Positions 986 to 13,787 of a stretch of 64,000 nucleotides of DNA are shown piece after piece (positions within the stretch are counted from its first letter, which is position 1; the number at the start of each line of letters is the position of its first letter). Both the position numbers and the translations under genes were made by a program. Source of the stretch: a virus; UHGV virus genome UHGV-1363143; one strand, 5' to 3'. The notes beneath the pieces are model-generated. The model was not told where the DNA came from. It was given only the letters and a program-made list of their open reading frames with translations, and did not search any database.

Positions 986-1417
986 TTAGTTCCAACTCTT
1001 ATATGTAATCTTAAGCATTCCATTCTTAGTTATTGAACTACAATCTGATGCATAGCCATAACAACTCCAATATGCTTCAAACTCTTCTGCTTGTTTTGTA
1101 TGTTCATATACTCTATCAAAGTACTTTCCTTTAGTTGGACCATTATGTAAGTAGATCTCCATAAGTTCTTCTTCATATATTTCGCCCTGAGATTTAATTG
1201 TTTCTATGCATATATCTTTATGCTCACGAATATAATCTTCTATAGTAGGACATTCATCATATATGCCATAGAAGCCATCTAGTGGATCAATTATCATATA
1301 TACTTCACCTTTATATAGTAAAGCATATACTCTTTCTTCTACCATGGCTAATAACTTACCCGGTAAATGTCTTCGTCTTAAGTCAGTAATTAAACTGTAT
1401 AATATATCAGTTACCAT
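986..1417 (-). CDS. hypothetical protein
   Basis: 143-aa ORF with phage-typical codon usage. Confidence 0.45.
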   Translation of the reverse strand: MVTDILYSLITDLRRRHLPGKLLAMVEERVYALLYKGEVYMIIDPLDGFYGIYDECPTIEDYIREHKDICIETIKSQGEIYEEELMEIYLHNGPTKGKYFDRVYEHTKQAEEFEAYWSCYGYASDCSSITKNGMLKITYKSWN

Positions 1418-3276
1418 ATTACATACTCCCTTCTATATTATATTATTTATTGTACTATATAACATAACTTATATTATCATATATACTAAACCTCATATTG
1501 CATTACATACTATGCCATATAATAAAACCTATATTATATTACCTTATGCAATAGCTAATCTATTAACAATTGTAATTCCAAACATACTTAATAATGTAAG
1601 TATTAATGCAATATATAACACCTTATCACCTCGCTTATTAATCACACTACATACTCTATCATATAGTGCAATAGCAATCTATTATCTTATGTATTATCTA
1701 ACAGAAGTTATAATATAATATACTATCTATTATAAAATCTATTAGATTTAGTATTAACATTAGTAATGCCAACACTTAAGAGGGTAAGTTTTCTTATATA
1801 TGCATGTGTAAATAACGAGAAAACCCTAAGTAATTAAACGTGGAAACACATTCAAAATACTTAGGGCTTAACGTATATTAATATAAGGAGGTTATATATG
1901 ATTGTATCTAGCCTTAAGCCAGTTTACATAATACTTTACGTTAACTGAAACTAGATTTCTGTGAAACGACAGTTACTTTAAAAACTACTGAAAAACCGTC
2001 CGCGGGTGAGCGTGGGGTAGGTAGTCTGGGAAACGTTTAGTGCTTTTTGTGCTAGTACGCCAAAACGTTATTGGTTAATTGCACGTTTTTTCCGATGAAT
2101 TAACCTAGTAAAGTAATGCCATTTTAAGCTTACTCCTAACGATCGCTTCACTTAAAGCATTACTTTAAAAAATATAGTTTTTACACATAGACTATTATAA
2201 TTTATGTTAGCCTATGTACTATATTTTAGAATGCATTATAGATTAGCCTATATAATAGACTGCATAATGCATAAGCAACGCTATTAGTAATAGCTTATAT
2301 ATTATAATACAGTATACAAGAGTGATCCTGTAATAATATATATGCTAATCCCTGATAGGGAAGGGGAGTGGTCCTAAGATAGAACCAACTCCTATATAAG
2401 CCTGCTTTTATATCATGATTGTAAGGTCGCTCGCATACGCTCGCTCCCACATGATAGAGCAGGTACATTATATAGTACAGGTTATATTACGATATAGGTC
2501 ATAACATAAGCTCTACTATATAATAGATTAGACATTATAATAGAAAGCCTATTATACTTGTCCTTATATAAGCTAGCTTTCTTTTCACATACGTTCATCG
2601 AATAGCATACGCTTTATTGCTCGCTGTCGCTCGCACGTTAATATGACACTCGCACGCTAGTAGTCCTATATTATTTATTATTGGCACTCGTACCTGTTAT
2701 AGAATATATAGGTATCTATTGGCACTCGTACGCAATCTTCAGTACTTTATGTATCACACCCTATTTCACCTGTACTTACTTATATAAAAAGAAGTTTGAA
2801 GTCATATAAGTACAGGTTGATAAAATGTGATACATTTAACCTAGATAAGCTATTAACAAAACTGTCATATAGCAACTATATGGAACTGGAACATATTACG
2901 AATGTGAAGAAGAGGGTAGAGTATCTGAATCGTGTTAATGCCTAAACTCGTAATCAGGTGTTCCTTCCTGTACGTGGCAAAGCTCATCTCTTGACTCTTC
3001 GTAATAGAATAGTAGTCGCTTATTACAATTTCATTAATAGCAAATCTAGGATGTACCAAAGTAAAAAATGTTTACCTCTATATGATGCCTAGAATACATA
3101 TAGTATGTAAGCACTACTTATTTGTAATCATATTTCTCTAACTGTTCCACAGTGCATGTCTAGAATAGCCAGTACTAAGAAAGATAGTATAATTAAAAAT
3201 AAGATTCCTGTTTCGACCTCCTATAAGGTCATCATCAGCTGGGCTGTTACTCCCAGGACAGGGGAGGAGAGTAGAG
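1418..3276. other. non-coding island 1 (about 1.86 kb, no ORF of 60 aa or more with phage-like composition)
   Basis: AT-rich part rich in TATA-like runs (1418-1750). GC-rich part carries repeated motifs: GTCGCTCGCA at 2427 and 2629; GCACTCG(C/T)A(C/T)G at 2647, 2684 and 2722; nested GC hairpin at 3208-3262. Confidence 0.6.
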
Positions 3277-4110
3277 TTACTCCATAATAACTCCGCCATT
3301 TCCTCCGAATGAAGTATTTCCGAATGCTCTTCTCATACTGTGCACGCCATCAATAACTTCACCTTTAGCTTCAGCAATGTAGCCATCATTTTTGATTTCA
3401 TCTACACACTGTTTAGTAGCCTTAGTCACTTCACCTACTGCAATACCAGCAAGTTTAGCACCAAAGCCAAATAATGATTTAGCAACTTTAGTAGTAGTAC
3501 CTATAGCTGTCTTAGCAACAGGAACTGCCACATTATTTAAAGTCATATCAGTAACATTGATAGCAGTCTTAGCTGTTTTATCAACTGCACCTGATATAGC
3601 CTCAGTAGCTCTCTTAAAGCCGAAAGCTCTTTCAATAGATGCATAAGTCTTAACAGGACAGTTAGTTATAGTTACAAGAATACTAGCTCCTTGCATTTCA
3701 ACTCCTAATTGTTCTTGTTTAAGATTAAAGTTTCTTATTAACTGTTGCACCATTTCTTGAGCGTCTAGTAAAGTCTTAGCAGGGAAGCCTACTTTACCAT
3801 AATAGCCATGAGCACCAGATTTATAATTTGCTCTATCTTCTCTATCCTGTTCTATAGTCTTAGCTTTTTTAACAGCCATGAGTTCTTGAGCAATCATGTC
3901 TGCCATTTCTTCTTCTTTAGATTTACGACTATCAACTATTTTAGCTCTACCTGTTTGTATCCATGCCCAAATAAAAGCAAAGAAGTCTTCTTGAGAACCA
4001 TGTAAGTCCTCTTTATAGATTTCTGCTAAAACCTTTCTTTCAGTTGAACCCTTAAATTTAAAGTCTATTACTGTTTGCATAGTTAAGTCTTCCATTATGT
4101 ATACCTCCAA
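3277..4110 (-). CDS. hypothetical protein
   Basis: 277-aa ORF; no recognisable motif. Confidence 0.5.
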   Translation of the reverse strand: MEVYIMEDLTMQTVIDFKFKGSTERKVLAEIYKEDLHGSQEDFFAFIWAWIQTGRAKIVDSRKSKEEEMADMIAQELMAVKKAKTIEQDREDRANYKSGAHGYYGKVGFPAKTLLDAQEMVQQLIRNFNLKQEQLGVEMQGASILVTITNCPVKTYASIERAFGFKRATEAISGAVDKTAKTAINVTDMTLNNVAVPVAKTAIGTTTKVAKSLFGFGAKLAGIAVGEVTKATKQCVDEIKNDGYIAEAKGEVIDGVHSMRRAFGNTSFGGNGGVIME

Positions 4111-4138
4111 AAATTATAATTATAGAGGAAATGAAAGA

Positions 4139-4609
4139 CTAAACACTACAAAGTGATAGTCCTTCACCTCCAAAGACTTGAATTGATTTTCTAGCCAATT
4201 TATCGACTAGACCATTGATAAAGTGAACAATACTGTTCTGAGTTTTATGGGCCTGAACCTTTTCAACCGATACTCTAGGACTACATACATTTAATAAGTA
4301 ATCTATATTCCTGTATAAGTCTAAGTTAGTTTTAGGTCGAGCCTTTCCATTACAATATAAGTATAATGCCTCAAAATCAACGTGTATAATAAACTCCTCA
4401 TTTCTTTCATTACGAACATATTGTAATGCTTTAATGAATGCTGTCAATTCTGCACGATTGTTATTTTGTAGGCCTTTTACTCTACCTGTTGATGCCTCTA
4501 TTACGTTATTATCTTCATTTGTAACTACATAGCTCCAACTAGCAATTGCGTCAGGTAAACCATTATTTATGCAACTGCCGTCGGAGAAAATATGGTACAT
4601 TATGTGCAA
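4139..4609 (-). CDS. rnhA: ribonuclease H (RNase HI family)
   Basis: IFSDGSC, NNNRAEL and C-terminal VQAH ... DKLAR motifs align with the E. coli RNase HI catalytic D, E, D, H, D residues. Confidence 0.85.
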   Translation of the reverse strand: MHIMYHIFSDGSCINNGLPDAIASWSYVVTNEDNNVIEASTGRVKGLQNNNRAELTAFIKALQYVRNERNEEFIIHVDFEALYLYCNGKARPKTNLDLYRNIDYLLNVCSPRVSVEKVQAHKTQNSIVHFINGLVDKLARKSIQVFGGEGLSLCSV

Positions 4610-4621
4610 CGACTCCTTTCT

Positions 4622-4807
4622 TTAGGCAGAGGTAACAGCTAAACCTTTTTCACAAGATTTCATAGCCTGTTCGACTGTCATAGTATACTGTTCAATAAGA
4701 TTCAATCTCTTCTCACCTTGTTGAACTATTTTTACAGGACCAAACCCTTGATTGGCCATAATTGAATGTGTTGACTTCTTACCTCTTACTACTCTCATTA
4801 TTAACAT
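4622..4807 (-). CDS. small hypothetical protein
   Basis: 61-aa ORF filling the gap between co-oriented genes. Confidence 0.25.
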   Translation of the reverse strand: MLIMRVVRGKKSTHSIMANQGFGPVKIVQQGEKRLNLIEQYTMTVEQAMKSCEKGLAVTSA

Positions 4808-5274
4808 GCCTCACTTTCATTTACTGTTTCATTAGATGATATAGACTCTGAATATCTGTTAAAGAATTCAGCATATCTATAACCGTATTTTTCAAATGTA
4901 GGAGCTAAAGCCTGTCCTAAACTAAAGCATGCCTTTAATATAGGTGAACTTTCTCCTAATAAAGAGTTAGTTATAGCTAAGAACTCTAGAACCATTTCCT
5001 CTCTAAGGTCAATAGTCATTTGTCCTGTAATCATAGATACAACATAAGCCTTAGTAGTAATTGTTTGGTCTACTAGCTCTTTAACTCTGTCTACAGGAAT
5101 ACCATTGATGTCGTCCATAGTATTAGCTAAATTTCTAAGAGATTTGATTTCTTCTCTGTTTAATATAATTTTCATAATACATTTCTCCTTGTCTTTACGT
5201 ATATTTTTTATAATAGAATTACAAAAGGACACCAGCCATAACTGATGCCCTGTTAGATTAAAATGCTGGGCCAC
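4801..5274 (-). CDS. hypothetical protein
   Basis: 157-aa ORF. Confidence 0.45.
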   Translation of the reverse strand: MAQHFNLTGHQLWLVSFCNSIIKNIRKDKEKCIMKIILNREEIKSLRNLANTMDDINGIPVDRVKELVDQTITTKAYVVSMITGQMTIDLREEMVLEFLAITNSLLGESSPILKACFSLGQALAPTFEKYGYRYAEFFNRYSESISSNETVNESEAC

Positions 5275-5899
5275 CTGAAGCTACTTGTTGTTGTACTCCA
5301 GCTTTCATAGCTTTCATTTCTCTAAATGCTGTTAATAACTTAGTGTACATACTAGCATTAATAGATACTCTATCAGCTTGAATAGGTGTATTACTGTTAT
5401 TCTTCTTACATGCATTAATATTCTTAAATACTAATCTGCAATATAAGTTTTGGATAAGTGGTAATGCCTCTCTCCATAATGACAGTTCATAGTCTGAGTA
5501 ATAAGTTGTCTCAGTACTGTCATCAGCAAGATAGAACTTGATTCTACCACTTTCTAATTCCTGTAATAACTCTCCAGGAACATAAGCAATAAGCATGTCA
5601 TTTCTGCCCTCTAGCATAGATATAAGAGTAAGCTCCCTTATAAGCATTGCTAGTGCATTAACTCTAACATTCTCAACTTCTACGGCTCTACCTAAGTTAG
5701 ATACCTTTTGAGTTTGTCCTGCTGTTATAAGAGAAGCAACCTTATTAGCGTCAATAGTCTTCTCATATACTGGTGGACATACTTCACAATTTTCTAAAGT
5801 TGTGATTCTTTTATCAGCTAAAGTACCTTGTACACTCATATCAAATGTAGCTCCCATAGCTTGACCAAAAGTTGTTGAATTAATAAAAACGTTTAACAT
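5258..5899 (-). CDS. hypothetical protein
   Basis: 213-aa ORF, first gene downstream (on - strand) of non-coding island 2. Confidence 0.5.
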   Translation of the reverse strand: MLNVFINSTTFGQAMGATFDMSVQGTLADKRITTLENCEVCPPVYEKTIDANKVASLITAGQTQKVSNLGRAVEVENVRVNALAMLIRELTLISMLEGRNDMLIAYVPGELLQELESGRIKFYLADDSTETTYYSDYELSLWREALPLIQNLYCRLVFKNINACKKNNSNTPIQADRVSINASMYTKLLTAFREMKAMKAGVQQQVASGGPAF

Positions 5900-5995
5900 A
5901 TGTATTCTCCTTTTCTGTACCGACTCTTTTCCGTCCGACGTACTGTTGCACTTTCAGGTGGGCAACTCACCAAAATTTTGAGCATGTAGCCCTAT

Positions 5996-6516
5996 TCAAA
6001 AAGACACTAACCATACTAGATATCCTGTCTTCTTGAATAGATATACATATAGTGGCACTCGCACGCACTAGATAAGTACTGGCTTGCCACAGATAATGGG
6101 GGTGGGGGAGCCAACAATCAAGAGAGGTAGAACATTTCAGTTACTATTTCTCAAGACTGTTGTTTAGCTTTTTGAACATGAAACAACTCCGATGGGAGTC
6201 TGAATCATCAAAAAAACACCAACCATACAGATATCCTGTATAGTGGTAGATACATTGTAGATACATTTGCACCTACATAAACATGCTGTATGCACCTACA
6301 TTATAGATACAAATGCAGATACAAAAAATGAGTCCTATTGCCGAAGTGCAACAACCTCGATGGAAGTCTGAATACACAAATGAGCAAAAGAACTCAAAAA
6401 GACACCAACCATACAGCCCTCCGCAGGAGAGATATACTGTTAAGTGTAAGTAAAACTATCATCCCCGAAGGGGGAGACAGAATACAAGAAGACACCAGCC
6501 ATATAAGATATCCTGT
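5996..6516 (+). repeat. four degenerate direct repeats of about 30 nt, AAAAAGACACCAACCATACAGATATCCTGT-like
   Basis: Copies at 5996-6027, 6210-6239, 6396-6416 and 6486-6516. Two copies are preceded by CAAC(C/T)(C/T)CGATGG(A/G)AGTCTGAAT(A/C) (6184-6207 and 6353-6376). Confidence 0.6.
6462..6475. promoter_or_regulatory. GC hairpin CCCC-GAA-GGGGG (3-nt loop)
   Basis: Perfect 4-5 bp G:C stem with GAA loop in an otherwise AT-rich genome; second copy at 6613-6627. Confidence 0.4.
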
Positions 6517-6612
6517 TGTATCTTGCACTCGTATGTATACTTTCATATCCTCGCACGCAAAAAAACTTTACTCTCCATCTGTTGAAAGAAGCAGGTCTCG
6601 ACAACAAACGGT

Positions 6613-6627
6613 ACCCCGAAGGGGGGT
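6613..6627. promoter_or_regulatory. GC hairpin (A)CCCC-GAA-GGGGG(T) (3-nt loop)
   Basis: Same architecture as the hairpin at 6462. Confidence 0.4.
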
Positions 6628-6694
6628 GGAGAGAGTAGGGGAGGGGACTTTTGTAGAACTAATGTAGTGGTCATGTCATATATTCTCCTTTCTA

Positions 6695-7453
6695 TTAGGC
6701 TATTAATCTTTGTAAAGATACTAATTCAATTGCTTTTGTTATAGTTACATATTCTTTACTAGAATGTATTTCATTATCATTACTTGATTCTAAAAGGCAC
6801 ATCTTACAGTTATTAAGAATGTTATATAGGTCTTCAGGAGTGCCTGTACTTTCATCAACCAAATGCATAACATCATCTAGATCATTACATTGTTTTAAAA
6901 CATTGCCCACTCTATCTATTAGTGGAGCAGTAGTCTTAGCATCTATTGCAGCAAGTAAAACTTTTAATGAAGTATAACCAGCTTCTCTTAATCTTGCTTT
7001 GATTCTATTAGTATCTATCTTTTGAGTAATAGAACCTTTAAAGCCAGCAACATTTACAGCAGCGGCTTGTTGGTATTTAGTAGGATCCCAAGTAAAAGCA
7101 ATACCATCTATAGATCCTCTAATGTATCCATTTTGGAAGCAGTTCATCCATACACCATTGCTTTCTGGTATGGAAATATAATTTACTGTTCTTTGCTTAG
7201 TCTTGATAGGCAAGTTAATATTGTCCATCTCAAGTCTTTTTAAGATATAAAGTCTTCCATATTTAGCAGCCTTAATTCCATCTGCACCATTTTTAACTTC
7301 AACCTTAGGTAGTTCATGATCAGTAAAGTCCCATATGAATCTAGTCTTATTTAATACTCCATACATTTTATTGCCTTCAATTTTAATAGCTACTTCTCTT
7401 TCAAATCCATTTAATTTAACAACCTTTTTATTTAATAACATATTCATTTTCAT
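6695..7453 (-). CDS. hypothetical protein
   Basis: 252-aa ORF directly downstream of the GGDEF gene. Confidence 0.5.
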   Translation of the reverse strand: MKMNMLLNKKVVKLNGFEREVAIKIEGNKMYGVLNKTRFIWDFTDHELPKVEVKNGADGIKAAKYGRLYILKRLEMDNINLPIKTKQRTVNYISIPESNGVWMNCFQNGYIRGSIDGIAFTWDPTKYQQAAAVNVAGFKGSITQKIDTNRIKARLREAGYTSLKVLLAAIDAKTTAPLIDRVGNVLKQCNDLDDVMHLVDESTGTPEDLYNILNNCKMCLLESSNDNEIHSSKEYVTITKAIELVSLQRLIA

Positions 7454-7496: not shown

Positions 7497-7952
7497 TTAT
7501 CTAACTAGACTTTTGTAGAACCTTCTCTTGTTTGTGTACATATTTTTATCAGCCATAGTGATAGCACTAGACATACTAACGCCGTAGCCAACACCATATG
7601 ATATATTAGGTATATCTTTCATTTTCTCTTTGATACTAAATATAGTTTCATTTTCAAATACTATAACAAATTCATCTCCACCGTATCTTACGATGATATC
7701 TTCATCTGAAACAGCTCGTTTTAAATCATTAACTACAGATAGTATTAGTTTGTCACCCATATTGTGACCACGCATATCATTAGTTTTCTTAAGACCGTTT
7801 ATATCAACTAAGACAACCATATAGGTTAACTTATTTATCTCTGATAGAATTTCTCTTCTGTATACACCAGTGAGGCTATCTTTCTTGAGACTTATTACAA
7901 GCTCAACTAATTGATCTTTCGACATTTTCATTAAATATTCTTTAGTGAACAT
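7497..7952 (-). CDS. stand-alone GGDEF-domain protein (putative diguanylate cyclase)
   Basis: DSLTGVYRR, VLVDINGLKKTNDMRGHNMGD and RYGGDEFVIV match the GGDEF start, metal/substrate and active-site motifs. 151 aa, no sensor domain, only a short N-terminal helix. Confidence 0.8.
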   Translation of the reverse strand: MFTKEYLMKMSKDQLVELVISLKKDSLTGVYRREILSEINKLTYMVVLVDINGLKKTNDMRGHNMGDKLILSVVNDLKRAVSDEDIIVRYGGDEFVIVFENETIFSIKEKMKDIPNISYGVGYGVSMSSAITMADKNMYTNKRRFYKSLVR

Positions 7953-10193: not shown

Positions 10194-10655
10194 CTAAACT
10201 TCATAACATTCAATAAAGTTGATACAATCTAAAGCTCTTATTGAATGAAAGCTTATTTGATGTGTAGGATATTTGAATTTCATTAATTCAAAGAACTTTT
10301 GCTTATTCATTTGTCCATGAATATATGCTTCAATATAATCATATATAGTATCATCAGCCATAGGACCGATAACTACATCATATCCATGTGTTCCTCCATT
10401 ACGACAGCTGACTACAAAGTCTAGCCATTCATCAGAATAATCTTCAAATGTTTTTACATTTAAAGTATCAATATTCTTAAGTTCATAAACATTGACTACG
10501 GAAGTATTTAATCTTCCAGCCCATTTTTCTGCTTGTTCTTGTATCTTAGTACAATAGAAGCCCCATGAGAAATCTTTGGTAAATCTATGCTTACGTATCT
10601 CTGGAAATTCTATTTTCATATAACTGCCATGATATATTATCTCAGATTTGTTCAT
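10194..10655 (-). CDS. DUF3990-like protein with H-G-S motif
   Basis: N-terminal IYHGSY ... DFSWGFYCT ... QAEKWA resembles DUF3990 proteins as remembered (not a database result). The HGS motif is reminiscent of H-Y-E ADP-ribosyltransferase folds. Confidence 0.4.
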   Translation of the reverse strand: MNKSEIIYHGSYMKIEFPEIRKHRFTKDFSWGFYCTKIQEQAEKWAGRLNTSVVNVYELKNIDTLNVKTFEDYSDEWLDFVVSCRNGGTHGYDVVIGPMADDTIYDYIEAYIHGQMNKQKFFELMKFKYPTHQISFHSIRALDCINFIECYEV

Positions 10656-10729: not shown

Positions 10730-12712
10730 CTAGTTTTGAATAACAACAGCTTTCATTCTAGTTCTTTCTAATAAATCTATAACTTTATTAGTTAACTCAT
10801 CTTTTTGATCTCTAACTGTTTTAGTGTATTCTAAGAATAGAGCACCATCATAGTCGAAATCTAATCCAGCACAAGCGTAAGTGATTACACTCTTAGCAGG
10901 AAGTACAGCAATGAAGCTATCTAATTCAATGTAGAATTTTACTACCTTATCAGCTTCAGCTTGAGAGATAACTCCTTTATTAACATGGAATTGTAATCTC
11001 TTTCTTATAGTCTTGATAGTTACATTCTTAGCAAAGTAGAACTCTCTTAATCCCATTTTAGGATATTTAATCATTACTACTTTAGTAAGTCTTCTATCGT
11101 TAATAACAACTTCTCCAGTATTTAATATATTAGTAAGCTTACCTCCAGTTAATATGAAAGTAGGATCAGATGATAATCTTCTATTATGAGAAGTTATAGC
11201 ACCATTTAATCCACTAATCATATTAGTTACTGAGTTGATTGATTGTCTCCAGCATGAATTATAGAATGGCTTAGATTCTTCAATAAATTTTGGAGCAATA
11301 GCCATAACAAAGTCATTAACATATTTTGAATTTAATGCTTTATCTATTTCTTCTGGAGTCATTAATCTAGATTTCTTATTGACAGTTAAATTAGCTGTCT
11401 TTGTATCAACTGCTAATTTTAAGATATCATATAGTAATTGAGCTCCATTTTCTCCTAACTCATTAGCAGCATACATTACTGTTTCACCAAGTTGAATTGA
11501 AGTTTTACCTTCAGAACACTTAGCAAATGCTAATATTTCAAGAGTAATTTCTCTTTCCATATCATAATCTAATTTGATACAGTTCTTATCAGCAATGTAT
11601 AGAAGATTATTTACATCACCAACATATTCTATCTTTTGACCTCTCTTTTCGGCCATTTCTTTAGTTCCTTCAATAGTTGACATAAATATTTCTTCAGATA
11701 CTACTAGAGCAGATGCCTTAATTGTTCCTGGTCTTAACTGAACCATTATTCCAGTCAATACCTTAGGATCTACTACTAATCCAAATCTAGCTTCAATCAT
11801 TTGTGCAAATACTCTAGCATTTACATACATTTGTCCATCTTGAGTTGGAACATCTTTTAATGATGCTTTTGATTTAGCAACAGTATCTAGAGTAGCTTTA
11901 GCGACTTTAATTCTTTCTTCTGAATGGCTTCTAAGAGCATCCATGAATTCATTTCTAGCTTTGTCATATTCAGCAGTTAAGAAAGTTTCATTTGTGTCAT
12001 TCTCCCATTTGCTGTAGTATCTAACGTATCCAGTTACTCTACCAAAGTTTACTGAACCAGTTAATACGTTACCAACATATCCACCAGCTTTTTGTAAAGC
12101 CATGAATATTGCTTTATCATCATCTAATCCATACTTATTACGTAAGTCAGATAAAGCACCTAATGTTGCATTGTCTAGAACTTCAAATCTTCTATCTTCA
12201 TGAGTTATTTCCATGAATATCATAGTCTTTTGTCTTTTATTTGAAGCAGTCCATGCTAAACCTCTATATATGTGTACTTCTCCTTCAGGAAGTTTATTTG
12301 TAACTTTACCATTTTCAAGATCTGTAAAAGTAAGACCTTCAGAACCTAAATCAGAGAATATTTTAACCCATCCATTAGTAGCATGTACTAGATATACATT
12401 ACTTCTAAAGATATCTTCAGCATTGCGAGCTGATTCATTTGTAACTGCTACAGATAGGAAGTCCCAAGTAAACTTATTTTTAATGTTTATTATTCTGCTT
12501 CCATTTCTAACAGTGATATCTTCAATTACATTATCCTTTACATATATTCTACTAATTGGTGTATTAGTAAGTTCTAGAGCAGTAGCATATCTACCTCTAT
12601 CTAAGTCGATTTCTATTGATGGTATAGTGATTTGTTGTTTCTTCATCATTCCATCCAATAAAGCTCTGAATTGTCCTTTAGTTTTGATTTCTCTTTTAAT
12701 TGTGTTTTTCAT
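10730..12712 (-). CDS. large hypothetical protein
   Basis: 660-aa ORF; C-terminal acidic cluster GLDFDYDGA (possible metal-binding motif); no Walker A. Confidence 0.55.
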   Translation of the reverse strand: MKNTIKREIKTKGQFRALLDGMMKKQQITIPSIEIDLDRGRYATALELTNTPISRIYVKDNVIEDITVRNGSRIINIKNKFTWDFLSVAVTNESARNAEDIFRSNVYLVHATNGWVKIFSDLGSEGLTFTDLENGKVTNKLPEGEVHIYRGLAWTASNKRQKTMIFMEITHEDRRFEVLDNATLGALSDLRNKYGLDDDKAIFMALQKAGGYVGNVLTGSVNFGRVTGYVRYYSKWENDTNETFLTAEYDKARNEFMDALRSHSEERIKVAKATLDTVAKSKASLKDVPTQDGQMYVNARVFAQMIEARFGLVVDPKVLTGIMVQLRPGTIKASALVVSEEIFMSTIEGTKEMAEKRGQKIEYVGDVNNLLYIADKNCIKLDYDMEREITLEILAFAKCSEGKTSIQLGETVMYAANELGENGAQLLYDILKLAVDTKTANLTVNKKSRLMTPEEIDKALNSKYVNDFVMAIAPKFIEESKPFYNSCWRQSINSVTNMISGLNGAITSHNRRLSSDPTFILTGGKLTNILNTGEVVINDRRLTKVVMIKYPKMGLREFYFAKNVTIKTIRKRLQFHVNKGVISQAEADKVVKFYIELDSFIAVLPAKSVITYACAGLDFDYDGALFLEYTKTVRDQKDELTNKVIDLLERTRMKAVVIQN

Positions 12713-13232: not shown

Positions 13233-13523
13233 TTATGCTCTTTTCTTACTGAATAGAGCAGTAGCCTCTTTGAGTTGAGCTCTGAAATAAGCGTCCTCAA
13301 GGAAACTAGGTATAGAACAACTATCAGTGTCTGTGGTAAGAGTTTGGTAGTTGTTCTTTTTATTTGTTACTTTAGAATCACTCCTTTCATTTTGATATAC
13401 CATATTAGGTGTTACTCCTTGCATAAATTCGCAGATCTTTTTAAAATTTTCCATTTTAAAACCTTCTTTCTTTCTTTTGTTTTTCTGTTTCGTCCTAATC
13501 TGCCAAGACTCATCAGGTGGCAT
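13233..13523 (-). CDS. hypothetical basic protein
   Basis: 96-aa ORF. Confidence 0.35.
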   Translation of the reverse strand: MPPDESWQIRTKQKNKRKKEGFKMENFKKICEFMQGVTPNMVYQNERSDSKVTNKKNNYQTLTTDTDSCSIPSFLEDAYFRAQLKEATALFSKKRA

Positions 13524-13541
13524 CTACACCACGACAGAAAT

Positions 13542-13592
13542 AAAAAAAAGAAGCTCATTAATATTGAATTACTCAATACTAACAAGCTTCTG
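13542..13592 (-). terminator. terminator candidate
   Basis: AGAAGCT ... AGCTTCT 7-bp outer stem, inner palindrome ATTGAATTACTCAAT, then T8 run on - strand. Confidence 0.4.
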
Positions 13593-13601
13593 TTATATGT
13601 A

Positions 13602-13787
13602 TTACAATGTATCCTCATAGTTCTCAAGAGGATGTATTTTATCTTTAATTTTACTAGCTATATTAACAAGTATACTTATAGGAAAGGTTACAATCCTTAT
13701 TACCCTATACTTTTTTCTAAACTCATCAACGTCTTTATGTGTACATAAAATATCACTAGAATATTCTTTAGTTCTCTCATCAAACAT
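13602..13787 (-). CDS. small hypothetical protein
   Basis: 61-aa ORF. Confidence 0.3.
   Translation of the reverse strand: MFDERTKEYSSDILCTHKDVDEFRKKYRVIRIVTFPISILVNIASKIKDKIHPLENYEDTL

Follow-up and report, generated by a model that had tools for sequence, protein, structure and literature searches.

Perreault et al. 2011 (PMC3088659) described hammerhead ribozymes flanking the genes of prophage operons and showed their cleavage both in vitro and in E. coli. The occurrence of hammerheads in phage operons is known; what they release mostly is not. DNA mini-hairpins of the consensus GCGNAGC / GCGNNAGC are found in the complementary-strand origins of phages G4, St-1 and alpha3, in ssiA of RSF1010 and in the early promoters of N4 (PMC13037366). 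The DNA analyzed here, called the window at its full length of 64,000 nucleotides, comes from the virus genome UHGV-1363143 and contains a gene-free island at positions 1418-3276. An initial annotation had read the recurring GC-rich motifs of this island mainly as DNA signals (regulator-binding sites, parS-like partition sites or a replication origin) and, as a secondary option, as structured non-coding RNAs. The regulator-site and parS proposals were not supported by our comparison, and the secondary option was favored because a covarying hammerhead, a pseudoknotted motif, a terminator and GC-rich motifs of one orientation all lie on the gene strand. We hold with moderate confidence that the island is a conserved structured non-coding RNA locus, probably transcribed from the minus strand along with the flanking early genes; our confidence in any particular trans function of its RNA is well below that. 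The island hammerhead resembles those of the prophage operons in its core, its GUC cleavage site, its open stem III, its intergenic location within one operon and the presence of several copies per genome, whereas it differs from them in heading a long gene-free stretch instead of merely separating two genes.

The island is flanked by a 277-aa gene (3277-4110, minus strand). The initial annotation had found no plausible open reading frame (ORF) in 1418-3276, and in the mechanical ORF list the longest ORF lying wholly inside the island is indeed of 64 aa at most. None of the 11 island ORFs of at least 30 aa is intact beyond the nearest public contig, L001 (IMG/VR 3300014583_000001, 241 kb, 87% identical over 7 kb around the island); stops or a loss of coverage appear from the related locus L003 on. 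Comparison with L001 showed an identity of 83-100% per 100 nt in the island and of 74-96% in the coding flanks. The lone dip, to 61% at 2626-2725, is due to a 38-nt unit (2679-2716, minus strand) which is present in the window and missing in the pairwise alignment from L001, indicating a recent gain or loss. The 277-aa protein has 42 homologues of 44-95% identity, none of which is named or carries a Pfam domain. The contigs of twelve of these homologues were taken for comparison of the gap, and a gene-free gap of 0.9-2.1 kb was found downstream of the homologue (45-92% identity) on every contig reaching far enough, either directly after the gene or with one to four small genes inserted before it. 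No related contig has a gene called within its homologous gap. The GC-rich array described below is retained even in more distant relatives, where additional genes separate the 271-aa gene from the island.

Searches with nhmmer profiles built from five sequences showed that the blocks of the island, namely the hammerhead, block 2, motif X, the GC-rich array, hairpin B and terminator T, occur as one copy each and in the same order in 7-9 loci; each of these conserved blocks is present once in the window. The gene-free gap is, by this comparison, a trait of the phage family. No related phage carries an intact gene at the island, so that a pseudogene remnant is not indicated. The absence of tRNAs reported initially also held, with no tRNA or tmRNA gene detected in the window by ARAGORN or Rfam. 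At the gathering score, no Rfam family was found in the whole window, and at E<=10 the islands gave only miRNA-type hairpin matches and a match to RAGATH-7-assoc far below threshold.

The first element of the island, located 15 nt past the stop codon of the 277-aa gene, is a type III hammerhead (HH-1, 3207-3262, minus strand) that reads CCUGU-C^CUGGG-AGUAACAG-CCCAG-CUGAUGA-U-GACCU-UAUAGG-AGGUC-GAA-ACAGG from 3262 to 3207, the part after AGGUC being GAAACAGG. Its layout, with stem III open, stems I and II closed, a GUC cleavage site and both core strands, is that of a type III hammerhead, and we regard its assignment as near-certain. Its minimum-energy fold is the three-stem hammerhead junction, and all three helices are present, the A15.1-U16.1 pair included. 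Cleavage is predicted 3' of C3257, between 3257 and 3256, and self-cleavage is a candidate activity. The core strands CUGAUGA and GAA(A) were found in eight of nine island copies; departures from the core sequence are CCGAUGA in L007 and, at the variable position N7, CUGAAGA in two copies of L058. The cleavage triplet agrees with N-U-H, being GUC in seven copies and GUA in L003. An extra U stands between A9 and G10.1 in six of the nine island copies, that of the window included.

Column-based pair counts from MAFFT were dropped for the hammerhead and for motif X, and hand-parsed tables were used, because the MAFFT alignments had stem II, P1 and P3 in shifted registers. In the hand alignment of eight hammerheads, 119 of the 120 cells of stems I, II and III are paired with compensatory changes in all three stems, a count that, like those of all our hand alignments of 7-8 related sequences, includes shared ancestry. 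Stem I, for example, is found as CUGGG/CCCAG, CGAGG/CCUCG, GUGGG/CCCAC, CAUGG/CCAUG, UCAGG/CCUGA and GCAGG/CCUGC. Two observations concern individual relatives. The island hammerhead of L007 (10894-10900), and that of L008, has a C for the conserved U4 (CCGAUGA), which is not an assembly error since it is common to two independent samples; and in L058 the island starts with tandem hammerheads (10888-10950 and 11002-11057).

A second type III hammerhead, HH-2 (13484-13538, minus strand), reads UCUGUC/GUGG-UGUAGAUG-CCAC-CUGAUGA-GUCUU-GGCAGAUU-AGGAC-GAAACAGA and is located in the gap between two small minus-strand genes, just past a terminator-like hairpin and in the same operon direction. Orthologues with covarying stems were found in L003, L059, L060 and L011, and the GAAA strand is lost in the L001 copy (CUAAAC). 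A 157-aa ORF of the mechanical list (13275-13748, plus strand) overlaps HH-2 and the small minus-strand genes, which have ribosome-binding sites; this ORF is probably not a gene.

Motif X is a pseudoknotted RNA of about 105 nt (2886-2991, minus strand), defined by alignment, RNAalifold and a hand-parsed table, which is present in seven loci and once in the window. Its P1 is AAGAG/CUCUU, AAUAGG/CCUAUU or GAAAG/CUUUC, that of L005 and L058 being AAUAGG/CCUAUU when J4 is UAC, and P1b is an invariant GAG/CUC step. P2 covaries (UGCC/GGCA, UGGC/GCCA and UGAC/GUCA), and the hairpin arms of P3 are wholly different between lineages with the pairing retained. The 8-nt loop of P3 pairs with a hexamer located 16 nt beyond P1, and this pseudoknot exists in the versions GGAACA/UGUUCC, AGAAUA/UAUUCU and GAAGCA/UGUUUC. 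The junction strands, UUAAMACGMUUCAGAKA and UAYC, are near-invariant. No Rfam model matched motif X at E<=10 in searches over 1400-3150 and 1300-6800, and none of the models for twister, twister-sister, pistol, hatchet, HDV-like, c-di-GMP and other Rfam ribozymes and riboswitches gave a match.

Block 2 (3139-3179, minus strand; AGUAC..CUAUUCUAGACA..UGUGGAACA) was found by nhmmer as one copy at the same position in seven loci. Direct repeats of UAUUCUAG(A/G)CAU (CUAUUCUAGACAUG, GUAUUCUAGGCAUC and CAUCCUAGAUUUGC; 3085-3179, minus strand), which are partly kept in relatives, are also located between the hammerhead and motif X. On the other side of motif X, a long AU-rich and near-perfect hairpin (2749-2835, minus strand; -33.7 kcal/mol, z = -6.1) has a conserved CCUGUAC...GUACAGG core, whose arms recur in L003 and L005 around other loops.

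Read on the gene strand, the GC-rich motifs of the initial annotation form an array (2585-2736, minus strand). Their restriction to the islands was confirmed: CACTCGYAC occurs four times in 64 kb (2647, 2685, 2723 and 6056), always on the plus strand, for a chance expectation of 0.04 and with 0 of 100 shuffles reaching four, and the motif is absent outside the islands, so that coding regions do not carry it at a similar density. Two details needed correction. The two copies of GTCGCTCGCA are present, at 2426 and 2626 and not at 2427 and 2629, and all members of the GCACTCG family exist, the copy at 2647 reading ACACTCG and not GCACTCG. The recurrence in island 2 near 6525 was found as a further relative, GCACTCGTATG, near 6526. 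The short core CTCGCW is not over-represented in the window (13 found for 14 expected), eight of the 13 lying within the two islands.

On the minus strand, the array consists of CGURCGAGYGCCA units at 2723-2732, 2685-2693, 2647-2656 and 2628-2637, spaced by 38, 38 and 19 nt, together with GA-hairpin 1 (UGC-GA-GC-GACA-GC-GA-GCA, 2618-2635), a mini-hairpin (AGC-GUAU-GCU, 2604-2613) and GA-hairpin 2 (GA-AC-GUAU-GU-GA, 2585-2596). A further minus-strand hairpin (2401-2462) bears a double GA module as its tip, GG-GA-GC-GA-GC-GUAU-GC-GA-GC-GA-CC at 2425-2448, which holds the GTCGCTCGCA copy at 2426; a 25-nt core of it is identical in L007. The window has three GA-modules (2635-2618, 2596-2585 and 2448-2425), and each GTCGCTCGCA copy corresponds, as the reverse complement, to the arms of one of them, namely the first or the third.

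The array is the most widely kept block, being present in 11 loci including the most distant. Over eight lineages the spacing of the units is 18-20, 38-39, 58 or 76 nt, that is, multiples of 19, with a variable spacer sequence. Some spacers keep hairpins by compensatory change (AUAGA/UCUAU in the window vs AUUGAC/GUCAAU in L003). The five or six bases before the units are alike within each phage (CUGAUG in L011, AAUAG in L059 and UAUUG in L060, each three times); from this likeness and from the different number of units in the window and L001, we conclude that the array undergoes turnover in which units are gained and lost. In every array, the final unit pairs with a half-unit 10 nt downstream to give a GA-hairpin, with the design stem-GA-RC-loop-GY-GA-stem and a GNA, GNNA or GUAU loop. 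The closing stem of hairpin 1 covaries (UGC/GCA, CCC/GGG, GGC/GCC, GCCC/GGGC and GGGGGC/GCCCCC), and the G·A mismatches within the GA-hairpins are invariant. In about 200 kb of related loci, 30 GA-hairpins are on the gene strand and 2 on the opposite strand, almost all inside the islands; the contig of L012, which ends about 130 nt beyond its last called gene, carries one within that tail. The unit core GCGAGYGC is able to pair with a second copy of itself. At unit positions 6 and 9, a modest association was seen, A6 being found with U9 in 9 of 10 copies (G6/U9 14, G6/C9 14 and A6/C9 1, in our own tally), and the asymmetry between G6/U9 and A6/C9 fits wobble-tolerant pairing of a single strand and not a symmetric duplex site. 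A sigma-54 promoter was considered for TGGCAC-N-GCA on the plus strand and rejected, the spacing being one base short and the second element missing in half of the copies.

Downstream of the array, hairpin B (2109-2168, minus strand) is preceded by a conserved TGTGTAWAWAC element and has 10-bp outer arms, UUAAAGUAAUG / CAUUACUUUAA, that are invariant in all relatives. Its inner stem covaries from UUUAAG/CUUAAA to UUUUUA/UAAAAA, and its helices 1-3 are 93-100% paired. The island is closed by an intrinsic terminator, T (1812-1866, minus strand; CCCUAAGUA...UACUUAGGG then UUUUCUCGUUAUUU), found in eight loci, in which a hairpin containing G+C is followed by a U-tract on the transcribed strand. 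Ten of the 23 pairs of T show compensatory changes. A simple terminator scan missed T because its loop exceeds 8 nt. For hairpin B and T together, 94.9% of cells are paired vs 32-45% when the partners are slid, both partners have changed in 12 pairs, and none of 500 shuffles attains any of these values. In T, about 25 cells are G·U, which the opposite strand would present as A·C, and the structure therefore belongs to the gene strand.

Between hairpin B and T, alignment revealed a conserved tail (1885-2090, minus strand) with an AAAACG..CGUUUU hairpin (2062-2090), AACGUUUCCCAGACUACCUACC (2016-2037), CGUUUCAnAGAAAU (1955-1968) and a stretch complementary to Shine-Dalgarno sequences, CCUCCUUAU (1885-1891), the CCUCCU of which is kept in five of seven lineages. 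On the plus strand of the tail, 1898-1948 offers a perfect AAGGAGG ribosome-binding site and a 16-codon ORF (MIVSSLKPVYIILYVN); this candidate gene was rejected, its start or frame being lost in L005, L003 and L060. After the U-tract of T, UACACAUG (1801-1808, minus strand) is invariant in seven of seven aligned lineages. The stretch 1418-1800, after the terminator, is AT-rich and poorly conserved, and probably holds the promoter of the next gene.

Three promoter-like boxes TCTATTATA are found in the island on the minus strand (2251-2259, 2519-2527 and 2536-2544), of which the 2259 box is kept in L003. The same box stands ahead of minus-strand genes at 412-432, 5209-5217, about 12777 and about 13202, and the boxes are putative promoters. 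Two of them are overlapped by a 60-nt near-perfect hairpin (2466-2525, minus strand; -24.4 kcal/mol, z = -6.2), and another long AU-rich hairpin is located at 2291-2347 (minus strand, z = -3.4), whose miRNA-precursor matches arise merely from the hairpin shape.

The GA-hairpin module was also found in other phages. A pattern of GA-hairpin 1 plus CGUAYG matched 65 IMG/VR loci, and the closing stem, which lies outside the pattern, has at least 4 pairs in 31% of these matches when a few percent are expected. In several of the 14 low-GC loci, the whole arrangement stands within a gene-free region of a phage unrelated to ours, where CGAGUGCCA units accompany GC-GUAU-GC mini-hairpins and GA-hairpins whose closing stems are new (L067, IMG/VR 3300010281_000002; L075, 3300014290_000003; L115, 3300045988_176777). 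CGAG(U/C)GCCA units stand beside the GA-hairpins in L067 and L115, and an OTKONC RNA (157 bits) is 1.5 kb from the module in L075. In L112 (3300007079_000164), the GA-hairpins are in a gap of about 260 nt between opposite-strand ORFs, with a six-tRNA cluster 1.8 kb away. The module is co-oriented with the neighboring ORFs in six of the eight low-GC loci examined, and is also present in high-GC phages and in small contigs of about 3.3 kb. Its presence in unrelated phage contigs shows that it is not private to one lineage. An exact-pattern scan of IMG/VR with the island blocks returned the one close relative only, the motif X pattern gave no match in species-representative genomes, and the hairpin B pattern gave 45 loci in JGI metagenomes, of which one is related (the same phage as L001) and the others are chance AT-rich hairpins.

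A second gap, which precedes the 210-aa gene and corresponds to island 2 of the initial annotation (5900-6694, minus strand), is rich in repeats and is conserved in L001, L003, L005 and L007. It contains a CGUGCGAGUGCCA unit (6053-6066, minus strand) with a weaker copy at about 6526-6535, two CCCCUUCGGGG hairpins with UUCG tetraloops that are found on the gene strand only (6613-6627 and 6462-6475, minus strand), and two hairpins, GACUCCCAUCGGAGUU and GACUUCCAUCGAGGUU (6185-6200 and 6353-6368, minus strand), which differ by a compensatory change. Of the five minus-strand copies of the repeat ACAGGAUWUCUGUAUGGUUGGUGUCUUUUUGA, four are in island 2 (5996-6028, 6208-6244, 6394-6416 and 6482-6516) and one (5219-5253) is just past the stop codon of a 213-aa gene; in relatives, one such repeat also stands between the 271-aa gene and the hammerhead. 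The paired CCCCUUCGGGG and GACUCCCAUCGGAGUU / GACUUCCAUCGAGGUU hairpins are further signs that island 2 may act as RNA. The 3' half of the repeat (GUGUYCUUUUUGA; GUGUUUCUUUGAAAAUC in L007) resembles what we take to be the boxA antitermination element of Firmicute rrn operons (UGUUCUUUGAAAA), for which a literature search gave no usable result; if real, the likeness would suit the protection of long untranslated transcripts from termination.

Minus-strand genes occupy the window from 1 to about 14262, and plus-strand genes take over from 14464. The plus-strand block encodes a large terminase, a major head protein and virion proteins of very large size. The terminase shares 46% identity with its counterpart in Moorella phage MTATph1 and 32-37% with those of Bacillus jumbo phages of the 0305phi8-36 type, and the search of GenBank phages with TerL gave only such distant jumbo-phage relatives. 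Neither the island nor the flanking 277-aa protein matched any GenBank phage in DNA and protein searches. From these results and the 241-kb size of L001, the source of the window is an uncultured jumbo phage of about 240 kb. Its host is probably a Firmicute. Its lysin has amidase, SPOR and peptidoglycan-binding domains, and its relatives have choline-binding or SH3 domains. The minus-strand block encodes a 151-aa GGDEF-like protein with weak mCpol similarity (7497-7952), a DUF3990 protein that is ADP-ribosyltransferase-like (10194-10655) and an RNase H (4139-4609), the gene of the latter being 900 nt upstream of the island. In relatives, the equivalent region (e.g. L007 152-646 and L010 16596-17435) has Tad2-like, Gad2, NADAR, Macro, NUDIX and TerD genes. 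This content suggests that the early operon around the islands is a host-takeover or counter-defense region.

The arrangement of the island would be explained as follows. Transcripts of the early operon would read through into the island and cut themselves after C3257, leaving an mRNA with a 2',3'-cyclic phosphate end and a downstream RNA whose 5'-OH end would be tucked into stem I. In a simple scan of the minus strand (loops <=8 nt), no terminator-like site separates the 277-aa gene from the array, so that a read-through RNA would include the array. Shorter transcripts, such as an RNA of about 350-430 nt from hairpin B to the terminator, may start from the TCTATTATA boxes at about 2544, 2527 and 2259. 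In these RNAs, the GC-rich motifs would be building blocks, the GCGA/GCGAG repeats pairing with one another by two Watson-Crick pairs that alternate with tandem G·A mismatches, and GCGAGYGC every 19 or 38 nt would provide further such helices or regularly spaced single-stranded sites. One or more stable early RNAs may then act in trans, the repeat units serving as a multivalent platform or a decoy for protein or RNA, and the CCUCCU tail of the RNA from hairpin B to T could pair with ribosome-binding sites as a possible translational repressor. The proposal of a trans-acting early RNA stems from unpaired nucleotides that do not vary, from the repetition of the units and from the gene neighborhood, with its counter-defense-type genes in relatives. 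A bolder version, which we offer tentatively and regard as unlikely, is that the 1.4 kb or so from hammerhead to terminator is a new class of large multi-domain phage RNA, in which motif X would be a catalytic or ligand-binding fold, the GCGAG modules would drive self-assembly or the capture of a host factor, and the GA-hairpin would be a widespread, undescribed phage RNA motif.

Several results weigh against an RNA locus. HH-1 itself gave no Rfam match at E<=10 in a 151-nt search, likely because it has a long loop 1 and an additional U following A9, and its L003 orthologue reaches 25.8 bits (E=0.011) with RF00008 (Hammerhead_3), below the gathering score of 48.5. Motif X, defined on seven hand-aligned sequences, is energetically weak when folded alone (z = +1.5); a weak folding energy without an Rfam match is usual for RNAs held by tertiary contacts. 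The outer arms of hairpin B, being invariant, are uninformative on pairing and may be a sequence-specific site. Exact multiples of 19 nt are more natural for a straight duplex lattice than for folded RNA spacers. The 3-4-nt loops of the GA-hairpins (GCA, GAA, GCCA and GACA) are mostly not RNA GNRA loops, and a tandem G·A in CGAG with GNA or GNNA loops closed by C-G is a recipe for very stable DNA mini-hairpins (PMC13037366). The 277-aa protein gives no clue to a partner of the array, since it has no sequence match in Pfam, PHROG, NCBIfam or PDB; its AlphaFold model has a mean pLDDT of 59.8 and no Foldseek match below E=0.04. Transcription, self-cleavage and RNA stability are, besides, all deduced from sequence.

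In the main alternative explanation, the GC hairpins work as single-stranded DNA of the minus strand, as a priming site, a lagging-strand start, an origin or another signal, next to an unrelated ribozyme and terminator. The GC-GNA-GC and GC-GNNA-GC cores match the mini-hairpin consensus, the tips (GC-GCA-GC, GC-GAA-GC and GC-GACA-GC) fitting it exactly and in a strand-specific manner, and the tip of GA-hairpin 1 is GC-G(N)NA-GC in 13 of 13 lineages. The Y-GA-R context of CGAG is suitable for tandem G·A pairing in DNA. The array is surrounded by stretches rich in AT, by long inverted repeats and by direct repeats at regular intervals, the RNase H gene is close by, and the occurrence of the module in high-GC phages and small contigs, with its long closing stems, agrees with a DNA signal as well. 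However, the mini-hairpins known from DNA differ from those of the island, which in every case are enclosed by an additional tandem G·A step and a stem that covaries, have GUAU-loop versions (GC-GUAU-GC and AC-GUAU-GU) whose loops are neither GNA nor GNNA, and are set in a region of RNA signatures in a double-stranded DNA jumbo phage. The array also lies between a ribozyme and a terminator of the same strand, in a fixed order among covarying RNA elements, and no terminator separates it from the upstream operon. The GC-skew check suggested initially for an origin showed no change of sign across the island, and no replication initiator, primase or helicase was recognized adjoining it. A hairpin promoter of the N4 type was rejected, since it needs the template strand of a rightward transcript and there are no rightward genes before 14464; nor was an RNA polymerase domain found in the giant virion proteins. 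A single-stranded DNA function is, on balance, unlikely. The regular spacing could also mean that the motifs are duplex binding sites for a phage regulator, parS sites or iterons of a replication initiator, 13-14-bp direct repeats at multiples of 19 nt in eight lineages and a ParA-like gene about 9 kb away in L060 being the points in favor. This is very improbable, since 19 bp is about 1.8 helical turns and would put neighboring sites on different faces of the helix, the units have one orientation, the hairpins are strand-specific (30:2), the excess of G6/U9 (14) over A6/C9 (1) is unexpected for a symmetric duplex, and the spacer hairpins are kept by compensatory change; no Rep, ParB or ParA was recognized among the window genes flanking the island.

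A further alternative is that the island is mainly a cis-acting control region of the early operon, made of promoters, processing sites and terminators that adjust the relative amounts and the stability of adjacent mRNAs, and producing no trans-acting RNA. Such a region would account for boxes identical to those before genes, for a hammerhead right after a stop codon as in prophage operons where the polycistronic RNA is thought to be cut (PMC3088659), for long perfect hairpins of the RNase III type, and for a terminator followed by the probable promoter of the next gene. It would not account for about 1.4 kb of sequence, which far exceeds the needs of processing signals, for the persistence of the array in distant relatives with extra genes before the island, or for the near-invariant unpaired nucleotides and the pseudoknot (in motif X, the array and hairpin B to the tail) where the flanking protein is only about 60% identical, such features typically marking RNAs that adopt a tertiary fold or bind a partner. 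We regard a mainly cis-acting region as unlikely. The idea of decayed gene remnants, or of a gene in another genetic code, is suggested by the length of the island alone and is given almost no credence here: the island is conserved as well as or better than the coding flanks, no relative has an intact gene, its ORFs do not survive from L003 on, and the standard code gives uninterrupted translations of the long ORFs elsewhere in the window.

With a structured RNA locus as the preferred reading, the ribozyme heads a 1.4-kb set of covarying RNA elements that are outside curated families, in phages without a sequenced isolate. The invariant junction nucleotides of motif X are the usual look of a ribozyme or a ligand-binding RNA, the G·A-mismatch hairpin module recurs in unrelated phages, and the 19-nt period fits no explanation offered here. 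Should the RNAs work in trans early in infection, they would be an addition to the short list of phage RNA tools for host takeover or counter-defense; should the hairpins function as single-stranded DNA, they would point to a replication signal of this phage group.

Among known systems, the RAGATH-type RNAs of Weinberg et al. are reportedly unclassified conserved structured RNAs found beside hammerheads in phage DNA. The island is similar in having structured RNAs next to a hammerhead, and RAGATH-7-assoc gave a match at 2241-2350 (21.6 bits); however, this match is far below the gathering score of 88.5 and falls on an AU hairpin, and no RAGATH model matched motif X or the array at E<=10. GOLLD and ROOL are, like the island, long conserved multi-domain non-coding RNA regions of phages with pseudoknots and no known function. 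They differ from it in that both are in Rfam, where neither was matched by the island, and in that the promoter-like boxes inside the island may give one or several RNAs. A mimic of a CRISPR repeat or of a type III antitoxin was rejected for the array: no CRISPR repeat or type III antitoxin is known to match the unit, and conservation covers just 13-14 nt of each 38-nt period, in contrast to ToxI-type repeats. With the CsrB/RsmZ sponges, pseudo-ToxI and RNA anti-CRISPRs (PMC3475682, PMC10651486), the array shares a likeness of layout only, namely a short repeated unit between variable hairpins. It is also like sponge or decoy RNAs in its location in an early region of counter-defense type and in a number of units that differs between close relatives.

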